64,000 nucleotides of DNA from a virus. The notes beneath the pieces are model-generated. The model ran no database searches. It was not told where the DNA came from and saw nothing but the letters and a program-made list of their open reading frames with translations. The translations under genes were made by a program, and so were the position numbers. Shown here piece after piece: positions 7,614-18,982 of the stretch (position 1 is its first letter; every line of letters starts with the position of its first letter). The stretch lies in UHGV virus genome UHGV-0134996. One strand, 5' to 3'.

Positions 7614-7882
7614 GGGCAGGTGTTCCCTTCCGCAAAGTAGGGAAAATTGCTATCAAGTTCATCACACCATCTGCGATGGTCGTAGCACCAAAACGCCTCC
7701 CACGGTGCACGGAAATACTTCATCCACCAGGACACTCGATCAGGTATATCTGCTGGTGGCAGTTCTTCTGGCAATAATTTGCCTGATAATTCCCTTTCCG
7801 CCCGCGACAGCATTTTTTTGAGGCTCGCGTTCTCTTTTTCAAGCTCATCTACGCGCACCTGTAATTCAGCTTTCGTTGGCAT
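7598..7882 (-). CDS. Hypothetical protein, Trp/Cys-rich C-terminus
   Basis: Start at MPTKAEL within 7598-7963 ORF. Confidence 0.35.
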   Translation of the reverse strand: MPTKAELQVRVDELEKENASLKKMLSRAERELSGKLLPEELPPADIPDRVSWWMKYFRAPWEAFWCYDHRRWCDELDSNFPYFAEGNTCPQCRG

Positions 7883-8546
7883 GGTCCACCTCATGCTTTT
7901 CAGCCACCAGCGGCAATAAAGCCCTGGCCATCTTATGAACCAATAGTGCATCAATAATGCCAAGCGTATGCCCCGGCTTAATGTTTAATGCCGCCTCAAG
8001 GCGACACCTTTCCAGGCCACTTTTCTCGGCTTGTTTATGATGATCTGGTGTAATAACGTCGCCCAAAACACGGCTAATTCTTTCTCGTAATTGCTGGGTG
8101 CCAGCACACTTGATCGCTGTATCGTGGAGACGGTTAACCAGTTCGCGATAAACATGCGGCTTAATTCGGATACGTTCACCGGTGACGCCCTTTCCTGGTG
8201 CTGGCACCGAACTATCCGGAATATCCGGATAGTTGCCAGCCTCGTAAGCTACCCGCAGCCAGTGCATGAATGTTTCAGTGGACACACAACCACAGTCCAC
8301 ATCGATTTTCCCGCGTTGCTGTTCCAGCCAATGCTCAAAATTCAATCTACACGTATTACTTTCATGTTGCTCTTTTTGTCTCAAGGCCAGCACCTGTTGG
8401 GCCAGTTCCAGAACGATACCGGGTGACGCTAACCTCTCAAATTCCAATAAATAGTTTGCGTCAGGATGACAAGTAGCCTCGCCTGCAAAAAATACCAATT
8501 GCTGTAAGTATGCTGTCGTTAGAGTAGTCATTTCTTTTTGCGCCAT
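7866..8546 (-). CDS. Hypothetical protein (island early-region gene)
   Basis: 226 aa ORF in minus-strand operon. Confidence 0.4.
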   Translation of the reverse strand: MAQKEMTTLTTAYLQQLVFFAGEATCHPDANYLLEFERLASPGIVLELAQQVLALRQKEQHESNTCRLNFEHWLEQQRGKIDVDCGCVSTETFMHWLRVAYEAGNYPDIPDSSVPAPGKGVTGERIRIKPHVYRELVNRLHDTAIKCAGTQQLRERISRVLGDVITPDHHKQAEKSGLERCRLEAALNIKPGHTLGIIDALLVHKMARALLPLVAEKHEVDHANES

Positions 8547-8902
8547 TTCTTTTCACATTCCTTAGTCCATTTTTCAATGTTCATTTTGGCAATATCAGTC
8601 ATTCCATCACCTAAGAAATACTTTTTCCGGTACGTCTTGCACTTAAACCACACTACAACAGCCACCAGCCAGAAAATAAAAGGCCATACGGCAATACCAA
8701 CTCCAGCCGCGATAAAGCCCAATATCCATAAATGAAGCTCTCCAACTTCTGTTTCCGGCAATATTCTTAAAGAATTAAACAGCAGGCTGAACGAATGGTC
8801 GTATGCATTGGCAGTATAAGACATGCAATCCATATAATTAAAGTCATAGCCTGCGGCTGCCGCCCATAATGGGCGGTCAAGAAAATGTTTTAGTGTCATC
8901 AT
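8528..8902 (-). CDS. Hypothetical membrane protein
   Basis: 124 aa, hydrophobic segments LWILGFIAAGVGIAVWPFIFWLVAVVVWF, basic C-terminus. Confidence 0.4.
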   Translation of the reverse strand: MMTLKHFLDRPLWAAAAGYDFNYMDCMSYTANAYDHSFSLLFNSLRILPETEVGELHLWILGFIAAGVGIAVWPFIFWLVAVVVWFKCKTYRKKYFLGDGMTDIAKMNIEKWTKECEKKWRKKK

Positions 8903-8908
8903 ATTAAT

Positions 8909-9202
8909 TTAAGGTTCAGACCAGTTATCTTCAATAGCAATGCTTAATCTTTGTAGCCATTCTGCTAATTTCAGCATTGCTTCTCTTTCGCTTAAACCAC
9001 ACGGAAAATCATCAAGCGATATTGTTGGCTTGAAGTTTCCCAAATTATCCATTTCAACGGTCAGATTTTGCTCCAGAACGGTATTTCTTACACGGCTATT
9101 GTGCCGAAGCAAATATACTGAACGTGATTTATTGGTTTTGTGGTCGAACGTATATTCGGTAAGTATCATCTGACTTCCTCCATGATTATTACCGCGCCAC
9201 AT
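8909..9202 (-). CDS. Hypothetical protein
   Basis: 97 aa ORF. Confidence 0.35.
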   Translation of the reverse strand: MWRGNNHGGSQMILTEYTFDHKTNKSRSVYLLRHNSRVRNTVLEQNLTVEMDNLGNFKPTISLDDFPCGLSEREAMLKLAEWLQRLSIAIEDNWSEP

Positions 9203-13155: not shown

Positions 13156-13475
13156 GCTGATTCCCCTTTCTCTGCTCTCTCCTGTCGGAACATCACTATC
13201 ATCAGGTCGCCTTTTGTCGCTATCCTGGCTGTTGTACCTGGTTCAATGCGGCTAAGCTCAAATGCGTCATAGAACGCTTCTAATGCCTTCTGGCGTAGTT
13301 CCTGTTTGCGCCGTTTTTTCCACTGTTTTAGGAAAATGGAACCCAGCCATCGCCATGTGCGGGACATGATGTAAAGCCAACCGAGAAGTGCCAGACCGGT
13401 ATTTAGGAGCGTATCGATCGTTATTGTCGTGTCGATATTCACTGGCTGCTTCCTTTGCGAATCTGTTCCGCCCAT
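13152..13475 (-). CDS. Small membrane protein
   Basis: 107 aa, hydrophobic segment LNTGLALLGWLYIM. Confidence 0.3.
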   Translation of the reverse strand: MGGTDSQRKQPVNIDTTITIDTLLNTGLALLGWLYIMSRTWRWLGSIFLKQWKKRRKQELRQKALEAFYDAFELSRIEPGTTARIATKGDLMIVMFRQERAEKGESA

Positions 13476-14149
13476 TCTTCAAGGGATTTCTCCGCATATT
13501 CACCAGACAGGCCATCAATCGGATGCGCTTCATTAGCCAACTCTTCTTTCGCTGACAAAATCATGCGTGTAACGTCGAAAACTTCACGCAAAGACTTATT
13601 GATAAATCCGTGATTGAACGCAGCAGCAAGACGGCTGGCGGTATAGTTAATCCCCTCGTTGCGTGCTTCCGCACGAATTTCAGCCAGAAAAGCATCGGTA
13701 GCTGGAGTTTCGCTGTGGTGCAGGGCATCGTTGATAATCATTGCAGCAACTCCGGCCTGCCCTGCATCCGTGACCGACACATGATCAAGAGTTACAGCCA
13801 TTGCGAGTTTCAGCCCGGCGTTCTCTGCCACCAGAGCCGCGAGCTTAGTCTCAAGCGGTGCTATTCGGCACATAGCATCAATATTTGTGTCCTCCAGGCG
13901 CTTAATTTCGCCCAGGAGTGCCAGCGCAACTTTTGGTGGGATAGCCGCGATATAACGGGCATTAGCACCAGCATTCCTTTGCCCATCAATGCCAGGCCAG
14001 TCAATAAAGTATCCGCAATGCCTACCCTCAGACGTGCGCGCAGGATAAATGCCGTTATGACCCGGCAAAATATATGCTACCCATTCATCTTGCGTTGCCT
14101 GTTCCGCCGCCTCGCGCAGTTCTTGATAGTCAATTGTCATTCTCGCCAT
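13439..14149 (-). CDS. Ea22-like family protein
   Basis: N-terminus MARMTIDYQELREAAEQAT. Confidence 0.6.
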   Translation of the reverse strand: MARMTIDYQELREAAEQATQDEWVAYILPGHNGIYPARTSEGRHCGYFIDWPGIDGQRNAGANARYIAAIPPKVALALLGEIKRLEDTNIDAMCRIAPLETKLAALVAENAGLKLAMAVTLDHVSVTDAGQAGVAAMIINDALHHSETPATDAFLAEIRAEARNEGINYTASRLAAAFNHGFINKSLREVFDVTRMILSAKEELANEAHPIDGLSGEYAEKSLEEWAEQIRKGSSQ

Positions 14150-14781
14150 CCTTCACAGTTGTAATCACGACAGCCTTCAAAATCATATGGGCTGTACTGC
14201 CAGGTGATTTTTCCGCAATGCGGACAATTCCAACGCACCTTCCCGCTTCGCGACTTCTTTCTTCTGTTCTGCTTTTTCAACCAGTCAGGCATGATCAAAC
14301 CTGCGCCCTGAACCATTGTTCTGCGGTTAAAGTTATTGATATTGAACGTCCGGCGCTTTGCTGCATCAGCAATGGAAAATGGCAACCAAACTATTCCTGG
14401 TTCGTTTTTGTTGGCGACGCTAAAGATGGTCGCTTTACTGAAGTCATCTGTTGGCAATCCACCGTGTTGAAGCCAGTAAACATCGTTGCCGTTCCAGCTA
14501 CCTTTTTTGTAGGCCACATACGCAGTGCAATCTGACTCAATCAGGCTTTCTGTAGGGATGTACTGGCAATCAACGTGCCACACAGCCATTGCATCCACAC
14601 TATCGGCACAAACAGGCTGATCGATATCTCGCCCACAATTCCAGGCTTTTTGGGCTTCTTCCAGCGTGTAAACATGAGCGCGATCGATATCAGAACTGTA
14701 ACCATTGCCGTTATGGCAATGGAATGAGGCGTTATTACCCACAGTTTCACGCAAGCACATCATGTAAAAACGGTTACTCAC
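14137..14781 (-). CDS. Hypothetical protein with C-terminal zinc-ribbon-like Cys cluster
   Basis: 214 aa; RWNCPHCGKITW...CRDYNCEGW. Confidence 0.4.
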   Translation of the reverse strand: MSNRFYMMCLRETVGNNASFHCHNGNGYSSDIDRAHVYTLEEAQKAWNCGRDIDQPVCADSVDAMAVWHVDCQYIPTESLIESDCTAYVAYKKGSWNGNDVYWLQHGGLPTDDFSKATIFSVANKNEPGIVWLPFSIADAAKRRTFNINNFNRRTMVQGAGLIMPDWLKKQNRRKKSRSGKVRWNCPHCGKITWQYSPYDFEGCRDYNCEGWRE

Positions 14782-14989
14782 TGGATGCCTCCCAGCAAAT
14801 TTGTCTTATATAAGAACTGTTAACGCGCTTTACTTTCCCGTCGAACTCCAGTTTCTTTAGACGACGCAAAACGTATGCCGTTTTGAGTGTGCGATATTTA
14901 TCCCTAAGCCAGTTGGTCACGACGTAAGTCATACAGCGCCCGTGTTCTTCCAACACCCGAACTATTTCTTCGTCGGTTGGCTTGCTCAT
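14774..14989 (-). CDS. Small protein, possible winged-helix DNA-binding
   Basis: 71 aa. Confidence 0.3.
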   Translation of the reverse strand: MSKPTDEEIVRVLEEHGRCMTYVVTNWLRDKYRTLKTAYVLRRLKKLEFDGKVKRVNSSYIRQICWEASSE

Positions 14990-15207
14990 TTTGTCGCTCC
15001 TTCAGCTTTCTCTACTTTCGCTGCCATGATTTCCAGCTTTTGTGCTGCCGATGCCGCTAACCTGTGAAATTCTTCATCTGTTTCAACTGGAATTGGTACA
15101 AACCTGACACCAATTTGAGCAAGGCTATGCGCCATTTCGAGACTTGCTCTTAACTCTGCTGGGGATGCTTTATTCAGGCCGACTTCCTCACAAATAACTG
15201 ATTGCAT
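14986..15207 (-). CDS. Small hypothetical protein
   Basis: 73 aa. Confidence 0.3.
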   Translation of the reverse strand: MQSVICEEVGLNKASPAELRASLEMAHSLAQIGVRFVPIPVETDEEFHRLAASAAQKLEIMAAKVEKAEGATK

Positions 15208-15216
15208 ACGCTCGCC

Positions 15217-15942
15217 CTACTGAATACGCTCAAACTCGATTACCCAAACCCAGGGATTAGCGCTCCAGCTTTCTTCGCCGTAGATGGATTCCCACAGGCG
15301 CTGGAACGCAACCTTGGCCATTGCGAAATCCCCCTTGGGAGTAAGGAATGTTCCCGGGTGATCAGGAAGCAAACTTCCAGCAGGCGGAACACCCTCATCC
15401 CTTGCATCGCATTCGCTGATATCGTTCAACCGCTCAACGCGCACGTTGGTAATTTCCACCAGGATGCGTGATGCCCATCGCGGCATGTGAATTGATGGAC
15501 GCCACCCACCATCAAACTTTTCATTCACAGTGTGAGGTTTCCAGTCGGCATCATCGGGTATCGACCATAAACCGTAATCACCAGGCTTTTGCTCACAACT
15601 GGCCCGATAAATCCTTGCTGCGTTCTTCTCATCGCCACGACAAAGGTTGTCGTTCCAGTCCACACTGCAACCATCTTCATTGCCTAATATCGCCCATGTT
15701 TCACGAACCCAAATTCGATCGCCGACGATACCAAAGGGGCAATTGAAAACACTGCTTACACCATCAGCCCCGTACCACTGAAAACCTGCACCAATTTTTC
15801 TAATCATCACTGGTGCTTCTGGACCAACTTCCGCAGGCTGATTTTTCATTATCCGCCGCGTCTGCGTTTTCCTTCCTTCGAGGATGGCTCGGACCATCTC
15901 ATCGTTGAAAATCATGCCGCGCTCTTTCACTTCGCCTTTCAT
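15217..15942 (-). CDS. Hypothetical protein, ASCH-like N-terminus
   Basis: 241 aa; MIFNDEMVRAILEGRKTQTRR; an upstream 28-codon hydrophobic ORF at ~15950-16036 may be coupled. Confidence 0.45.
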   Translation of the reverse strand: MKGEVKERGMIFNDEMVRAILEGRKTQTRRIMKNQPAEVGPEAPVMIRKIGAGFQWYGADGVSSVFNCPFGIVGDRIWVRETWAILGNEDGCSVDWNDNLCRGDEKNAARIYRASCEQKPGDYGLWSIPDDADWKPHTVNEKFDGGWRPSIHMPRWASRILVEITNVRVERLNDISECDARDEGVPPAGSLLPDHPGTFLTPKGDFAMAKVAFQRLWESIYGEESWSANPWVWVIEFERIQ

Positions 15943-16120
15943 GCATCCCCCTTACCCATGCGCGACGATGCCGCCAAAAGTGATAGAGAACAGCCAGAAA
16001 TAGATCGCGGCCATAATGATTTTGAATGCCGTGTTCATATTTTCAGCTCCTGTGATTGATTGGATACATGCCGCGCCTTGCGGCATGTTTTTATTTTCAC
16101 TTTCTCTGTTTTAAAAATCA

Positions 16121-16137
16121 AGATTTATTAGAGCAAT
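16121..16137 (-). promoter_or_regulatory. C1 operator-like 17-mer (16/17)
   Basis: Plus strand agatttattagagcaat; overlaps stop codon of HAD gene. Confidence 0.65.
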
Positions 16138-16643
16138 TACTGTTGATGGAGAAGCGCGTTTTCATACTCCCTGACCATTAACGTAAGTACGCCGTGACTC
16201 CTGAAAACACGCGCCACTTCAATCTTATCTTCCAGCGCGAACGCGATTTTACTTAGACCAATTTTCTTAAGGAGAGCAATCTTTGCTGGGCCGTCATTTC
16301 TGTCATCGGTGGCAGGACGCATAGATAGCAAAGGCTCAGCCCCGTTTGTTACGTGCTTACGCAACCAGGCTCGTGTTTTATCCCTGGCTATCTCACAGCG
16401 CCCGGTTACAAACCAGACCGTGTAAACGTTAAATAACTGGCGCACCATATCAATAACTGGAGTGATGGGAGCATCAGTGTCACAGGCAAGGTTAAACTCG
16501 TTCCAGTGCTCTGTTAATGCACCTTTGCCAGGTGGTGGAAGCAAATGCAGCCTGTCTTCCGTTGCCTCTGATATCGTCCCATCAATATCGACTATGACGA
16601 TATACGGACGTTCCTGGTGTGCGTGTTTATTGAAAATACTCAA
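16137..16643 (-). CDS. HAD-superfamily phosphatase-like protein
   Basis: 168 aa; motif I IVIVDIDGTIS. Confidence 0.6.
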   Translation of the reverse strand: MSIFNKHAHQERPYIVIVDIDGTISEATEDRLHLLPPPGKGALTEHWNEFNLACDTDAPITPVIDMVRQLFNVYTVWFVTGRCEIARDKTRAWLRKHVTNGAEPLLSMRPATDDRNDGPAKIALLKKIGLSKIAFALEDKIEVARVFRSHGVLTLMVREYENALLHQQ

Positions 16644-16716
16644 ATGCCCTCCTCATTGGACGAAAAAAATGCTGGTGGGACGCACTCCACCAGCATTAAA
16701 AGTGACACTGTAACTA

Positions 16717-17979
16717 TCAGCGAACGTAAATAGTGCCGCCGTTCTCTTTTTCCCATGCATCGCTACGTGCATAGCAAACATCGAGAAGTCTTCTTGCCGC
16801 TGTTTCCTCTAAACCCAATTCGACAACCAACTGCTCATGACGGCGGGTAACCACATCAAACAGGGTATGCAGCCCTTTATTGGCCAGTTCATCAATGAAT
16901 TCCGGTTCGAACGGTAGCTCTGCATCTGCCAACATAACCTCTTGCGCCCACTCGACACGGCGGACCAGTTCCGGGCGGCGGCTTTCCATCTCTTTACAGA
17001 TCATTTCATGGAAGAACTCTACCCAACCTTCCGGCTGGAACTCGCGGAAAATGGCCAACGGCTGGAAGTTTGGCATCAACCATTCGTTGATACGTATATC
17101 AATGGCATAGCCCATGTCGCAGCAGAACTGATAAGCAAAGTCCAGCTTAGAAACGATATAAGGACGCTCGTTATTGAACTCTTTAGGCGATGAGATCCCA
17201 TAAGCCAGGAGGCGCGGGAAGAATGAGATTTGCCCTAACGTCGGATGGAGTTTGCTTGCAGGGAAACGGCGCTCAGTAATGCCATACATTTCCTTCTTGA
17301 GCGTCGCAAATTTGGCGTTTTCATTAACCAGCTCGGTAACCTCTGCTTTTTTATTAGCAAATGCCACGCGCGCCTCGCTTGCATCTTTAATAGCCTTTTT
17401 GAGCTGTTGGTTAAGGTCGACAATCTGCTTACGCAGTTCCTGTCGCTCGCTTTTGGCTTTGTTATAGCGTTTCTCAAGGTTAAAAGGATCAAGTTTCATG
17501 ATCTCTTTATATTGAGATTTTAGAGTTGAAATCTGTGAGTTCCGCAGCACAACCATCGCGGTCATTTCATTGAGTTTTGTTTCCAGCTCAATGCTTATAC
17601 GTTCGGCATTATCAGCACGCTGGTTGGCGTCATGCGTCGCATCTTCGATCGCGTCCTGTTGCTGGCGTTTCAAATGTTCAATTTCCAGCTGAAGCTCTTC
17701 AATTTCTTTACCCTTCAGACCGAGATCCAACTGCATATTTTCAGCTGCATCTACCAGGGAGTTATGGCTATCAGCTTCTGCGTTATAAACATCAATAAGC
17801 TGTGCGTGAAGCATCTCCGCTGACTGAACCGCATTATCAAAAAAACGTGCTGTGAGGTCATCACAACTAACGCGGCGTTGCGCGGCCCGGATGTTCTGGA
17901 TAATGGCCGGGATACCGGCATTCAGGACATCAGGGATAGATACATTTTCGATTGATTGGTTTTGTGCTGAAGTGCTCAT
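16717..17979 (-). CDS. Coiled-coil protein with ~190-aa C-terminal globular domain, function unknown
   Basis: 420 aa; heptad-rich N-terminal 230 aa. Confidence 0.45.
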   Translation of the reverse strand: MSTSAQNQSIENVSIPDVLNAGIPAIIQNIRAAQRRVSCDDLTARFFDNAVQSAEMLHAQLIDVYNAEADSHNSLVDAAENMQLDLGLKGKEIEELQLEIEHLKRQQQDAIEDATHDANQRADNAERISIELETKLNEMTAMVVLRNSQISTLKSQYKEIMKLDPFNLEKRYNKAKSERQELRKQIVDLNQQLKKAIKDASEARVAFANKKAEVTELVNENAKFATLKKEMYGITERRFPASKLHPTLGQISFFPRLLAYGISSPKEFNNERPYIVSKLDFAYQFCCDMGYAIDIRINEWLMPNFQPLAIFREFQPEGWVEFFHEMICKEMESRRPELVRRVEWAQEVMLADAELPFEPEFIDELANKGLHTLFDVVTRRHEQLVVELGLEETAARRLLDVCYARSDAWEKENGGTIYVR

Positions 17980-17980
17980 T

Positions 17981-18199
17981 TCAAAGTTCCGTATTAGCTT
18001 GTGCTTCGGTCATTTTTCCTAAGTATGAAGGAGGAAGGACTACGCAATTTGTATCCAGTCCCTCACCTATGGCAGCCTGTAAAATTCTGGCTAAGGTGAG
18101 TCTCTTGTTGCGATACCTGGTGATGACATGCCTGATACCGCCGGTCGGCGTAACAAAGGCGATCAGCCAGTAGTGATATTTCCGTCGGAATGGCCACAT
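17981..18199 (-). CDS. Small hypothetical protein
   Basis: 72 aa ORF abutting the 420-aa gene. Confidence 0.3.
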   Translation of the reverse strand: MWPFRRKYHYWLIAFVTPTGGIRHVITRYRNKRLTLARILQAAIGEGLDTNCVVLPPSYLGKMTEAQANTEL

Positions 18200-18213
18200 A
18201 GTGCACCTTGTAG

Positions 18214-18230
18214 ATTGCTCTAATAAAAAA
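18214..18230 (+). promoter_or_regulatory. C1 operator-like 17-mer, inverted orientation (14/17)
   Basis: attgctctaataaaaaa on plus strand. Confidence 0.45.
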
Positions 18231-18254
18231 CGTGATGAGTGTACATCACGTTTT
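18227..18254. terminator. Bidirectional intrinsic terminator hairpin
   Basis: aaaacgtgatg-agtgta-catcacgtttt, A/T runs on both sides; follows the glycosyltransferase operon. Confidence 0.6.
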
Positions 18255-18262
18255 AAAAATAT

Positions 18263-18279
18263 GGAATTATTAGAGCAAT
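18263..18279 (-). promoter_or_regulatory. C1 operator-like 17-mer (14/17)
   Basis: Plus strand ggaattattagagcaat. Confidence 0.5.
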
Positions 18280-18280
18280 A

Positions 18281-18982
18281 TTATTCTGATTCTCGCTCAA
18301 AAAATGAGCTGATAAGGGGAAGCCAATCCTCTGACACTTCGCGAGGTCGCGGTTTGCCGTGGAAAAAGATTATTCGGCAGTCTTTTGGTAATGCCCCATT
18401 CCCCCTGGAGTAACGCGCGCTCGCATATTTTGAACCTGGTTCCACAACATCGGCCTTGTAACTTACAAACCATCCTGGATACAGATCCTGAAATGCTGGT
18501 GTATCATCGCCCATAACCTTTCGTAAGAACCCCTGATCACCCCAGCATTCAGTAGTAACACAACGAGCAATCCAACCTTCCGGATCTTGCCAGAATGCAC
18601 TCCAGATATGCGCTTTTACACTATTTGGTATCCACAGGGCACCGCTGCCACGATATTGTGGATGGTAAAAATCCCTAAGCATGGTGAAGCTGGTTGGTGG
18701 ATGCTCTAGGATTGGGCGTATATCACCGGCAATAACCGTGTCCAAATCCAGATAGAACAGATCATCGGTTATATCCGGTCGGAACAACTCTATTTTCGCC
18801 CACCAGCCACGGCACTTTTGCCACTGGTTGATCAATGGGACAACTTTGACGCCAGGTACATGTAAACGCTTCAGGTCTGTCAGGCAAATAATTTCATAGC
18901 CTTTTGGCAGTTGATTAACCAGCCACTGCACATCGGAAGCGTTATAGTCACCACCAGAGCGAAAAACTAAAGCAATCTTCAT
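18281..18982 (-). CDS. GT8-like (GT-A fold, retaining) glycosyltransferase
   Basis: 233 aa; DxD motif [12 protein letters not shown]; H..G.KP motif IFFHGKPRP as in LgtC/WaaJ-type GT8; no TM segment. Confidence 0.5.

Follow-up and report, generated by a model that had tools for sequence, protein, structure and literature searches.

The P1 gene pmgS, labelled morphogenetic, may encode an early DNA-associated coiled-coil protein with a predicted C-terminal (HhH)2 domain

We analysed a 64,000-nucleotide stretch of viral DNA, UHGV virus genome UHGV-0134996 (hereafter the window), and focused on one open reading frame (ORF) of 420 amino acids (aa) that a first-pass annotation had flagged as a coiled-coil protein of unknown function. 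By sequence match, it belongs to a P1-type phage-plasmid and is the already annotated gene pmgS. The flagged feature is therefore no discovery, since both pmgS and the operators Op86a and Op86b are annotated in P1. What is new is a predicted tandem helix-hairpin-helix, or (HhH)2, domain at the C-terminus of PmgS, two conserved uncharacterised elements, and the non-structural gene neighbourhoods of its homologs. PmgS is filed in databases under head morphogenesis. We suggest instead, with confidence that falls a little short of even, that it is an early, accessory, DNA-associated coiled-coil protein and not a virion or assembly protein. The ORF and the genes on either side of it are:

16717..17979, minus strand: pmgS, the flagged ORF, 420 aa with an ATG start (shtB in P7)
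17981..18199, minus strand: pmgR, an ORF of 72 aa that matches PHROG 3177 (E=4e-47) and is annotated in P1 (AF234172)
16137..16643, minus strand: pap, 168 aa, encoding a HAD-family phosphatase of the polynucleotide-kinase 3'-phosphatase type

The 420-aa protein matches phrog_1660, 'PmgS-like head morphogenesis', over residues 1-420 (E=1.1e-192), and the nearest database protein cluster is 98% identical to it. Megablast of positions 16000-18300 returned 19 phage records, among them P1, P7, RCS47, SJ46 and JL22, each with 100% query cover and with identities of 97.1-98.0%; identity of the region to the P1 records was 97.6-97.7%. The gene order is that of P1 and P7 (ppp-pmgQ-Op86a/b-pmgR-pmgS-pap-Op88). 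The P1 record, AF234172, names the three ORFs pmgR, pmgS and pap, and marks pmgS as a 'putative' morphogenetic gene. The small upstream ORF and the downstream HAD phosphatase had been described in the first-pass annotation and are both as it described them; the product of pap, named Pap in the P1 record, matches HAD_PNKP in Pfam (E=2e-11) and PHROG 415, 'polynucleotide kinase' (E=6e-57).

Published experiments indicate that PmgS is not required for infectious particles. Gonzales et al. 2022 made in-frame deletions of 29 P1 genes (PMC9024508). Deletion of pmgR gave no infectious phage, with heads and tails left unjoined, and pmgR is essential in P1 (PMC9024508). Phages lacking pmgS, pap or pmgQ produced infectious virions and showed 'normal restriction' on EcoA, EcoB and EcoK hosts (PMC9024508 Table S3). 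PmgS is absent from the list of virion proteins found with LC-MS/MS (PMC9024508 Table S4), and the main text of that paper does not mention it. Knockdown by CRISPR interference likewise scored pmgS as non-essential (Piya et al. 2023; PMC10695390). Among 77 P1-like phage-plasmids, pmgR and pmgS belonged to the 21 'extremely conserved' genes, and pmgS had its full P1 length in 77 of the 77 screened (PMC9603915). A literature search on pmgS, shtB, Op86 and PHROG 1660 found no paper assigning a function, so the 'unknown function' of the first-pass annotation stands.

That annotation had named clear homology to a known structural or scaffold protein as a result that would count against it. We looked for it in profile, Pfam, PHROG, Foldseek, BFVD and PDB-sequence searches and found none; the PmgS model had no significant match in BFVD, a set of predicted viral structures. 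Nor is a late module associated with the gene. The only promoter annotated upstream of pmgR-pmgS in the P1 record is a C1-repressed sigma-70 promoter, with no late promoter annotated. The regulatory elements around the operon are:

18263..18279, minus strand: predicted C1 operator with three mismatches to the consensus, equivalent to P1 Op86a (OpmgRa)
18214..18230, plus strand: predicted C1 operator with three mismatches, inverted relative to Op86a and equivalent to P1 Op86b (OpmgRb)
16121..16137, minus strand: predicted C1 operator with one mismatch, equivalent to P1 Op88 (OpmgT), which is annotated in P1 and P7
-35 TTGCTC under Op86a and -10 TAAAAC at ~18250-18255, minus strand: sigma-70 promoter PpmgR, from the AF234172 annotation
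18227..18254 (stem 18227-18237 / 18244-18254), both strands: hairpin inside the operator pair, with an 11-bp stem and a 6-nt loop
16661..16697 (hairpin 16668-16697), minus strand: intrinsic-terminator-like hairpin in the pmgS-pap gap, with an 11-bp stem containing six G-C pairs, followed by U7

The operators were located by scanning the whole window, with up to three mismatches allowed, for the asymmetric 17-bp C1-operator consensus of P1, ATTGCTCTAATAAATTT. The window holds 11 such matches where chance predicts 0.33, and in 100 shuffles that count was never reached. The two sites upstream of pmgR agree with the annotated P1 Op86b and Op86a to within ~1 nt, and AF234172 states of Op86a that it 'controls expression of pmgR and pmgS'. 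Since this promoter is annotated in P1 as C1-repressed, pmgS would be off in the lysogen and come on early once induction or infection has taken place. Eight further matches were recorded in the window, at 1212, 4519, 21887, 35629, 50582 and 52726 and as an overlapping inverted pair at 31937-31964. One arm of that pair (31937-31953 on the plus strand, 31948-31964 on the minus strand) is a perfect consensus, and the arrangement resembles a bivalent operator.

The inverted operators around a hairpin, as first noticed in the letters alone, are present. The hairpin at 18227-18254 has an A-run at one edge and a T-run at the opposite edge and is terminator-like in both directions. Its predicted energy is -13.4 kcal/mol for each of the two strands, with z scores of -5.9 and -5.3 and none of 200 shuffles as stable. 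On the minus strand it lies after the pmgQ stop and overlaps the -10/start region of PpmgR. From the P1 coordinates and the fold, it would plausibly end upstream transcription while pmgR transcripts start inside it. The other hairpin, at 16668-16697, lies directly 3' of the pmgS stop and before pap (-18.6 kcal/mol, z -3.3); the P1 record has no annotated terminator there. Two parts of the first-pass annotation need adjusting at this end of the locus. It had described a three-gene operon, and the gene order is indeed as described, but the membership of pap is uncertain because a terminator-like hairpin precedes it and the P1 record limits Op86a control to pmgR and pmgS. The Op86-controlled unit is safest read as pmgR-pmgS, and pap may depend on read-through. 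The operon had also been said to be bounded by operators. This holds for the promoter side only, where the inverted pair and its hairpin lie; the lone operator on the opposite side, which abuts the end of pap, belongs to the next operon downstream (OpmgT/Op88) and does not control pmgS.

AlphaFold2 bears out the coiled coil and globular C-terminal part described by the first-pass annotation, and the protein divides into the following regions:

17284..17937, minus strand: aa 15-232, a helix at 15-35 and two long helices forming the coiled-coil arms, as modelled by AlphaFold2
17464..17517, minus strand: aa 155-172, a conserved helix break, SQYKEIMKLDPFNLEKRY, with the family motif ELKxLKxL(D/N)PxxLKKK
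16924..17283, minus strand: aa 233-352, a conserved alpha/beta middle domain with the motifs RINEWLxP and (H)PxLVxRxEWA
16735..16923, minus strand: aa 353-415, a predicted (HhH)2 domain of the type found in the Rad51 N-terminus, the C-terminal domain of the RNA polymerase alpha subunit (alpha-CTD) and NusA AR

The C-terminal half (aa 228-420) was modelled from a 46-sequence alignment with confidence (per-residue score, pLDDT, of 92.1; predicted template-modelling score, pTM, of 0.87), and the model contains the five-helix (HhH)2 fold. PmgS is thus predicted to end in an (HhH)2 domain, and this corrects the first-pass annotation, which had recognised no motif in the C-terminal domain. The best structural and sequence matches are the N-terminal domains of Rad51 paralogs; SAM domains were also listed among the matches for the C-terminal-half model. 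Foldseek on the full-length model agrees with this picture. A profile of the C-terminal half matched RAD51C (E=0.064), RAD51, alpha-CTD and NusA, with E values of 0.06-2. Within the family, 19 of 76 members match Pfam HHH_5 and 12 of 76 match RNA_pol_A_CTD (E<0.01; best 8e-7 and 5e-7, respectively), and the canonical K-G-h-G-x-K-T/S-A hairpin is kept in 36 of 46 aligned members.

The full-length protein was modelled from a 9-sequence alignment, with a mean pLDDT of 72.9. Helices were predicted at 15-35, 41-157 and 166-232 and a strand/helix domain at 252-412; the P1 record annotates a coiled coil at aa 75-220. Between the two long helices, pLDDT falls below 50 at aa 156-163. At this break, K158, E159, L163, D164, P165 and L168 are invariant in 9 homologs (down to 26% identity), and the motif is recognisable at the matching place in ~41 of 73 distant family members. 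The middle domain has no recognisable relative; its profile matched only designed repeat proteins among PDB sequences, which we regard as noise. Across the family alignment A3, the first arm (from an N-terminal 'DxYNxL' motif to the L-D-P break, PmgS aa ~70-165) is 73, 80, 91, 95, 102 or 138 aa long, whereas the EWL motif stays ~127-134 aa from the break wherever this landmark is cleanly found. The discrete steps in first-arm length fit heptad or hendecad units. A simple antiparallel hairpin of the two arms was considered and rejected, because the arm lengths do not co-vary across the family.

The family extends well beyond P1. A word-indexed search found only P1-like relatives and one protein at 28% identity. 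HMMER with a profile of the C-terminal region recovered 99 cluster representatives at E<=1e-3 and 47 at <=1e-10, most of the 99 being 350-470 aa long with the conserved domain at the C-terminus, and all 76 family members tested fall in PHROG 1660. The named hosts are all Gammaproteobacteria (Escherichia, Salmonella, Cronobacter, Citrobacter, Brenneria, Pectobacterium, Symbiopectobacterium, Vibrio and Aeromonas), and one family record is named Pseudomonas phage 15b. A scan of viral sequences with the closer alignment, A2, returned P1-like contigs only, at 98-100% identity. A single genome scan for PmgS loci gave 6 loci. Two single-member entries carry PmgS sequence joined to another domain: P0002 (480 aa) to a DNA cytosine methyltransferase domain and P0016 (463 aa) to a Ppp-like metallophosphoesterase domain. 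Both probably stem from errors of gene calling or assembly in P1-like contigs and not from real domain fusion.

Nine non-P1 contexts place PmgS homologs in regions of early recombination, methylase and integrase genes. The arrangements seen, with the homolog written as PmgS, are:

Brenneria locus: N-antiterminator...RecT-YqaJ-PmgS...Xis-Int
Locus with a CI-like gene: CI-like-PmgS-Rrf2-MT-A70...Int
Locus with a C5 methylase: C5 methylase-62 aa-PmgS
Locus with a NUDIX gene: NUDIX-DUF4942-PmgS
Locus with a primase: Primase, Q, RdgC (faint)-PmgS
Vibrio phage douglas 12A4: PmgS-DNA methyltransferase
phiARM81mr: CI...ExoVIII-RecT-Int-PmgS-x-N6-methyltransferase-exonuclease
Citrobacter and Vibrio owensii prophages: Rv2179c-like 3'-5' exonucleases and integrases near the PmgS homolog
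Vibrio owensii prophage, additionally: RdgC and an NA37 nucleoid protein

No capsid or tail gene stands beside the PmgS homolog in the non-P1 loci examined. The one packaging gene seen, which encodes a GpA terminase, lies ~3.6 kb downstream in the NUDIX-DUF4942 locus. No neighbour proved universal in a search for one conserved across the wider family. An orphan DNA methyltransferase lies within one or two genes of the PmgS homolog in several unrelated prophages, a recurrent but not universal arrangement. In four loci these genes map to 8507-9106 (L088), 7996-8628 (L093), 7666-8244 (L094) and 1187-2914 (L087); two of the enzymes are of the MT-A70 type and share 44% identity, a third is an N6-adenine and the fourth a C5 methyltransferase.

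From these observations, we propose the following course of events. pmgS would be co-transcribed with pmgR from the sigma-70 promoter, which C1 would shut off through the inverted Op86a and Op86b. PmgS is predicted to consist of four parts: the N-terminal helix, two coiled-coil helices interrupted by the L-D-P break, a family-specific alpha/beta domain and the C-terminal (HhH)2 domain. Contact with DNA, or with a partner that processes DNA, would be made by the 'head' of (HhH)2 and middle domains, with the coiled coil serving as a spacer or a dimerisation arm; PmgS is probably dimeric. We infer DNA binding, the oligomeric state and the process served; PmgS would work beside the early recombination, nuclease and DNA-modification functions of the phage. 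The 'morphogenetic' label would accordingly be a historical guess, because PmgS is under early repressor control, is dispensable, is missing from the virion list, has a DNA-type domain and keeps company with recombination, nuclease and methylase genes.

Several points weigh against this proposal. The published pmgS phenotypes are all negative. The neighbourhoods are circumstantial, since many accessory genes that have nothing to do with one another gather in early regions close to the integrase. Global confidence in the full-length model is low (pTM 0.40), so that it does not fix the arrangement of the arms. The P1-type PmgS itself gave no HHH_5 match in the Pfam scan, falling below thresholds, and its second hairpin is degenerate, reading L-G-L-E for K-G-I-G at aa 388-391 (window ~16807-16818); the nearest P1-type sequences have no glycine at all there. 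Thus the Gly-hydrophobic-Gly hairpin that contacts the DNA backbone is present for the family and absent in P1-type PmgS. KGIG is retained in the P1-like clade that is 25-28% identical and likewise carries PmgR. With its second hairpin degenerate and its score below the HHH_5 thresholds, the domain of P1 PmgS may bind protein, as NusA AR and alpha-CTD do, rather than DNA. Finally, the TGA stop of pmgR lies 1 nt before the pmgS ATG, a spacing that suggests translational coupling of pmgS to pmgR; pmgS always follows pmgR in the P1 lineage, PmgR is needed for head-tail joining, and the P7 record calls the pair 'sheath' genes, with shtA ('sheath structure or assembly') corresponding to pmgR and shtB ('sheath contraction') to pmgS.

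These last points belong to an explanation in which PmgS cooperates with PmgR, as a chaperone or assembly factor that the phage can do without, in completing the head, joining head to tail or stabilising the sheath. Scaffolds and assembly chaperones often contain long coiled coils. A PmgR-like ORF of 73-76 aa stands immediately upstream of the PmgS homolog in each of the four P1-like lineages that we examined, and it is kept even where that homolog is only 25-28% identical. The unjoined heads and tails of ΔpmgR phage (PMC9024508) and the names given in P1, P7 and PHROGs point the same way. However, deletion and knockdown of pmgS leave phage yield and plating normal (PMC9024508, PMC10695390), the virion proteome lacks PmgS (PMC9024508), and the promoter is C1-repressed. 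Outside the P1-like lineage, no PmgR-like ORF was found beside PmgS homologs in the loci examined, and these homologs sit in early recombination and methylase regions. Structural-protein homology is lacking, and the names reflect an early guess that the P1 record itself marks as putative. We consider a role in morphogenesis unlikely on this balance. Dispensability in K-12-type laboratory hosts is also what would be seen if PmgS were an early counter-defence or host-takeover protein that disarms a host system directed against DNA, for example a nuclease or an SMC-like complex that restricts plasmids, with a phenotype invisible in K-12 for want of the target. Early repressor control, homologs that in several phages adjoin orphan DNA methyltransferases as well as other accessory genes, a helix-break motif conserved as if it were a defined interaction surface, and the intact gene in every one of the P1-like phage-plasmids screened (PMC9603915) would fit this. 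Nevertheless, ΔpmgS phage plates normally on the type I restriction hosts EcoA, EcoB and EcoK (PMC9024508), the protein resembles no known anti-defence protein, its PADLOC matches are coiled-coil noise, and its sequence points to no target, so that this too seems an improbable account.

The remaining two explanations fare worse. The C-terminal domain might mimic the transcription machinery, binding RNA polymerase, NusA or a transcription factor in the manner of alpha-CTD or NusA AR and redirecting early host or phage transcription. The RNA_pol_A_CTD matches in the family would suit this, as would the lost GhG hairpin of P1 PmgS, which fits protein binding over DNA binding. Yet the best matches are to Rad51-paralog N-terminal domains, the alpha-CTD and NusA matches do not discriminate because all these domains share one fold, and the neighbours are recombination and methylation genes rather than regulators; we regard such mimicry as highly unlikely. 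Defence by the prophage, or superinfection exclusion, acting in the lysogen is suggested by weak PADLOC matches to coiled-coil regions of LmuB and JetC and by the location of the gene in prophage accessory regions. The C1-repressed promoter would keep it off in lysogens, however, and the matches (12-23 bits) cover coiled-coil arms only, with no ATPase or nuclease domain, which makes this explanation very improbable indeed.

Our preferred reading of PmgS as an early DNA-associated protein can be widened to the family, more hesitantly. It is conceivable, though we doubt it more than we believe it, that PHROG 1660 is an unrecognised class of non-ATPase, coiled-coil, (HhH)2 DNA-handling proteins of temperate phages of Gammaproteobacteria, misfiled as 'head morphogenesis' and marked by the helix break L-(D/N)-P-x-x-L-K-K-K and the INEWLxP/HPxLVxRxEWA domain. 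Such proteins might act early on phage or host DNA, as accessories to RecT/Exo-type recombination or to orphan methylation, or might counter a host DNA-targeting defence that is absent from K-12.

Two observations concern the surroundings of the operon. Just past Op88, the window differs from reference P1, which has pmgT/U/V there, over ~13400-16100. Of this stretch, 78% matches three other 'P1' records at 99% identity, and parts, with ead/Ea22-like and DUF4752 genes, match Stx-converting lambdoid phages at ~91%; its make-up is consistent with variable region H described in PMC9603915. On the other side lies pmgQ (18281-18982, minus strand), given a 'putative morphogenetic function' in P1 and labelled 'head morphogenesis' (HdmD) in P7. 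PmgQ matches PHROG 1962, 'glycosyltransferase', over its full length (E=6e-128), and its deletion is viable in P1; the morphogenetic label may be another misleading placeholder name.

P1 is a mainstay of Escherichia coli genetics, and the phage-plasmids related to it are widespread and carry resistance genes. Many P1 genes still go by placeholder names, and the label 'PmgS-like head morphogenesis' has spread in databases to genes of prophages whose neighbours are recombination and methylase genes. What we found speaks against morphogenesis and in favour of an early DNA-associated role, which helps to avoid mis-annotation and gives a concrete lead to test for one conserved P1 gene, made up of the (HhH)2 domain, the conserved helix break and the consistent neighbourhoods. 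No new kind of system is revealed, and PmgS is a modest but reasonable experimental target.

Compared with known systems, PmgS resembles phage scaffolds and assembly chaperones in its helical coiled-coil content, its absence from the mature virion and its history of 'morphogenetic' annotation. It differs from them in showing no sequence or fold homology, in being dispensable for P1 particles, in its early regulation and in its non-structural neighbourhoods. With SMC, Rad50 (SbcC) and MukB-type proteins, LmuB and JetC it shares long arms with a conserved break, a DNA-type domain and weak profile matches in the arm region. Unlike these proteins, it has no ATPase head, hinge or zinc hook and is 3-4 times smaller; the Pfam scan found no Walker A/B ABC-type ATPase head, and scores against SMC models were 16-18 bits where the cut-offs are 567-729. 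TPR, SMC, LmuB and JetC matches from the Pfam, NCBIfam and PADLOC scans were sub-threshold, lay in the arms only and were rejected as compositional, and the resemblance to this whole group is compositional only. The (HhH)2 fold of the predicted model is that of the N-terminal domains of Rad51/RadA and Rad51 paralogs, of alpha-CTD and of NusA AR1/AR2, at ~20% sequence identity, in a protein that lacks the RecA-type ATPase core, the polymerase subunit and the NusA body to which those domains are attached. The closest comparison is with PmgS of phage P1 (AAQ14063; P1_gp093) and ShtB of P7 (AAQ07558), which are the same gene, with few substitutions in the window.

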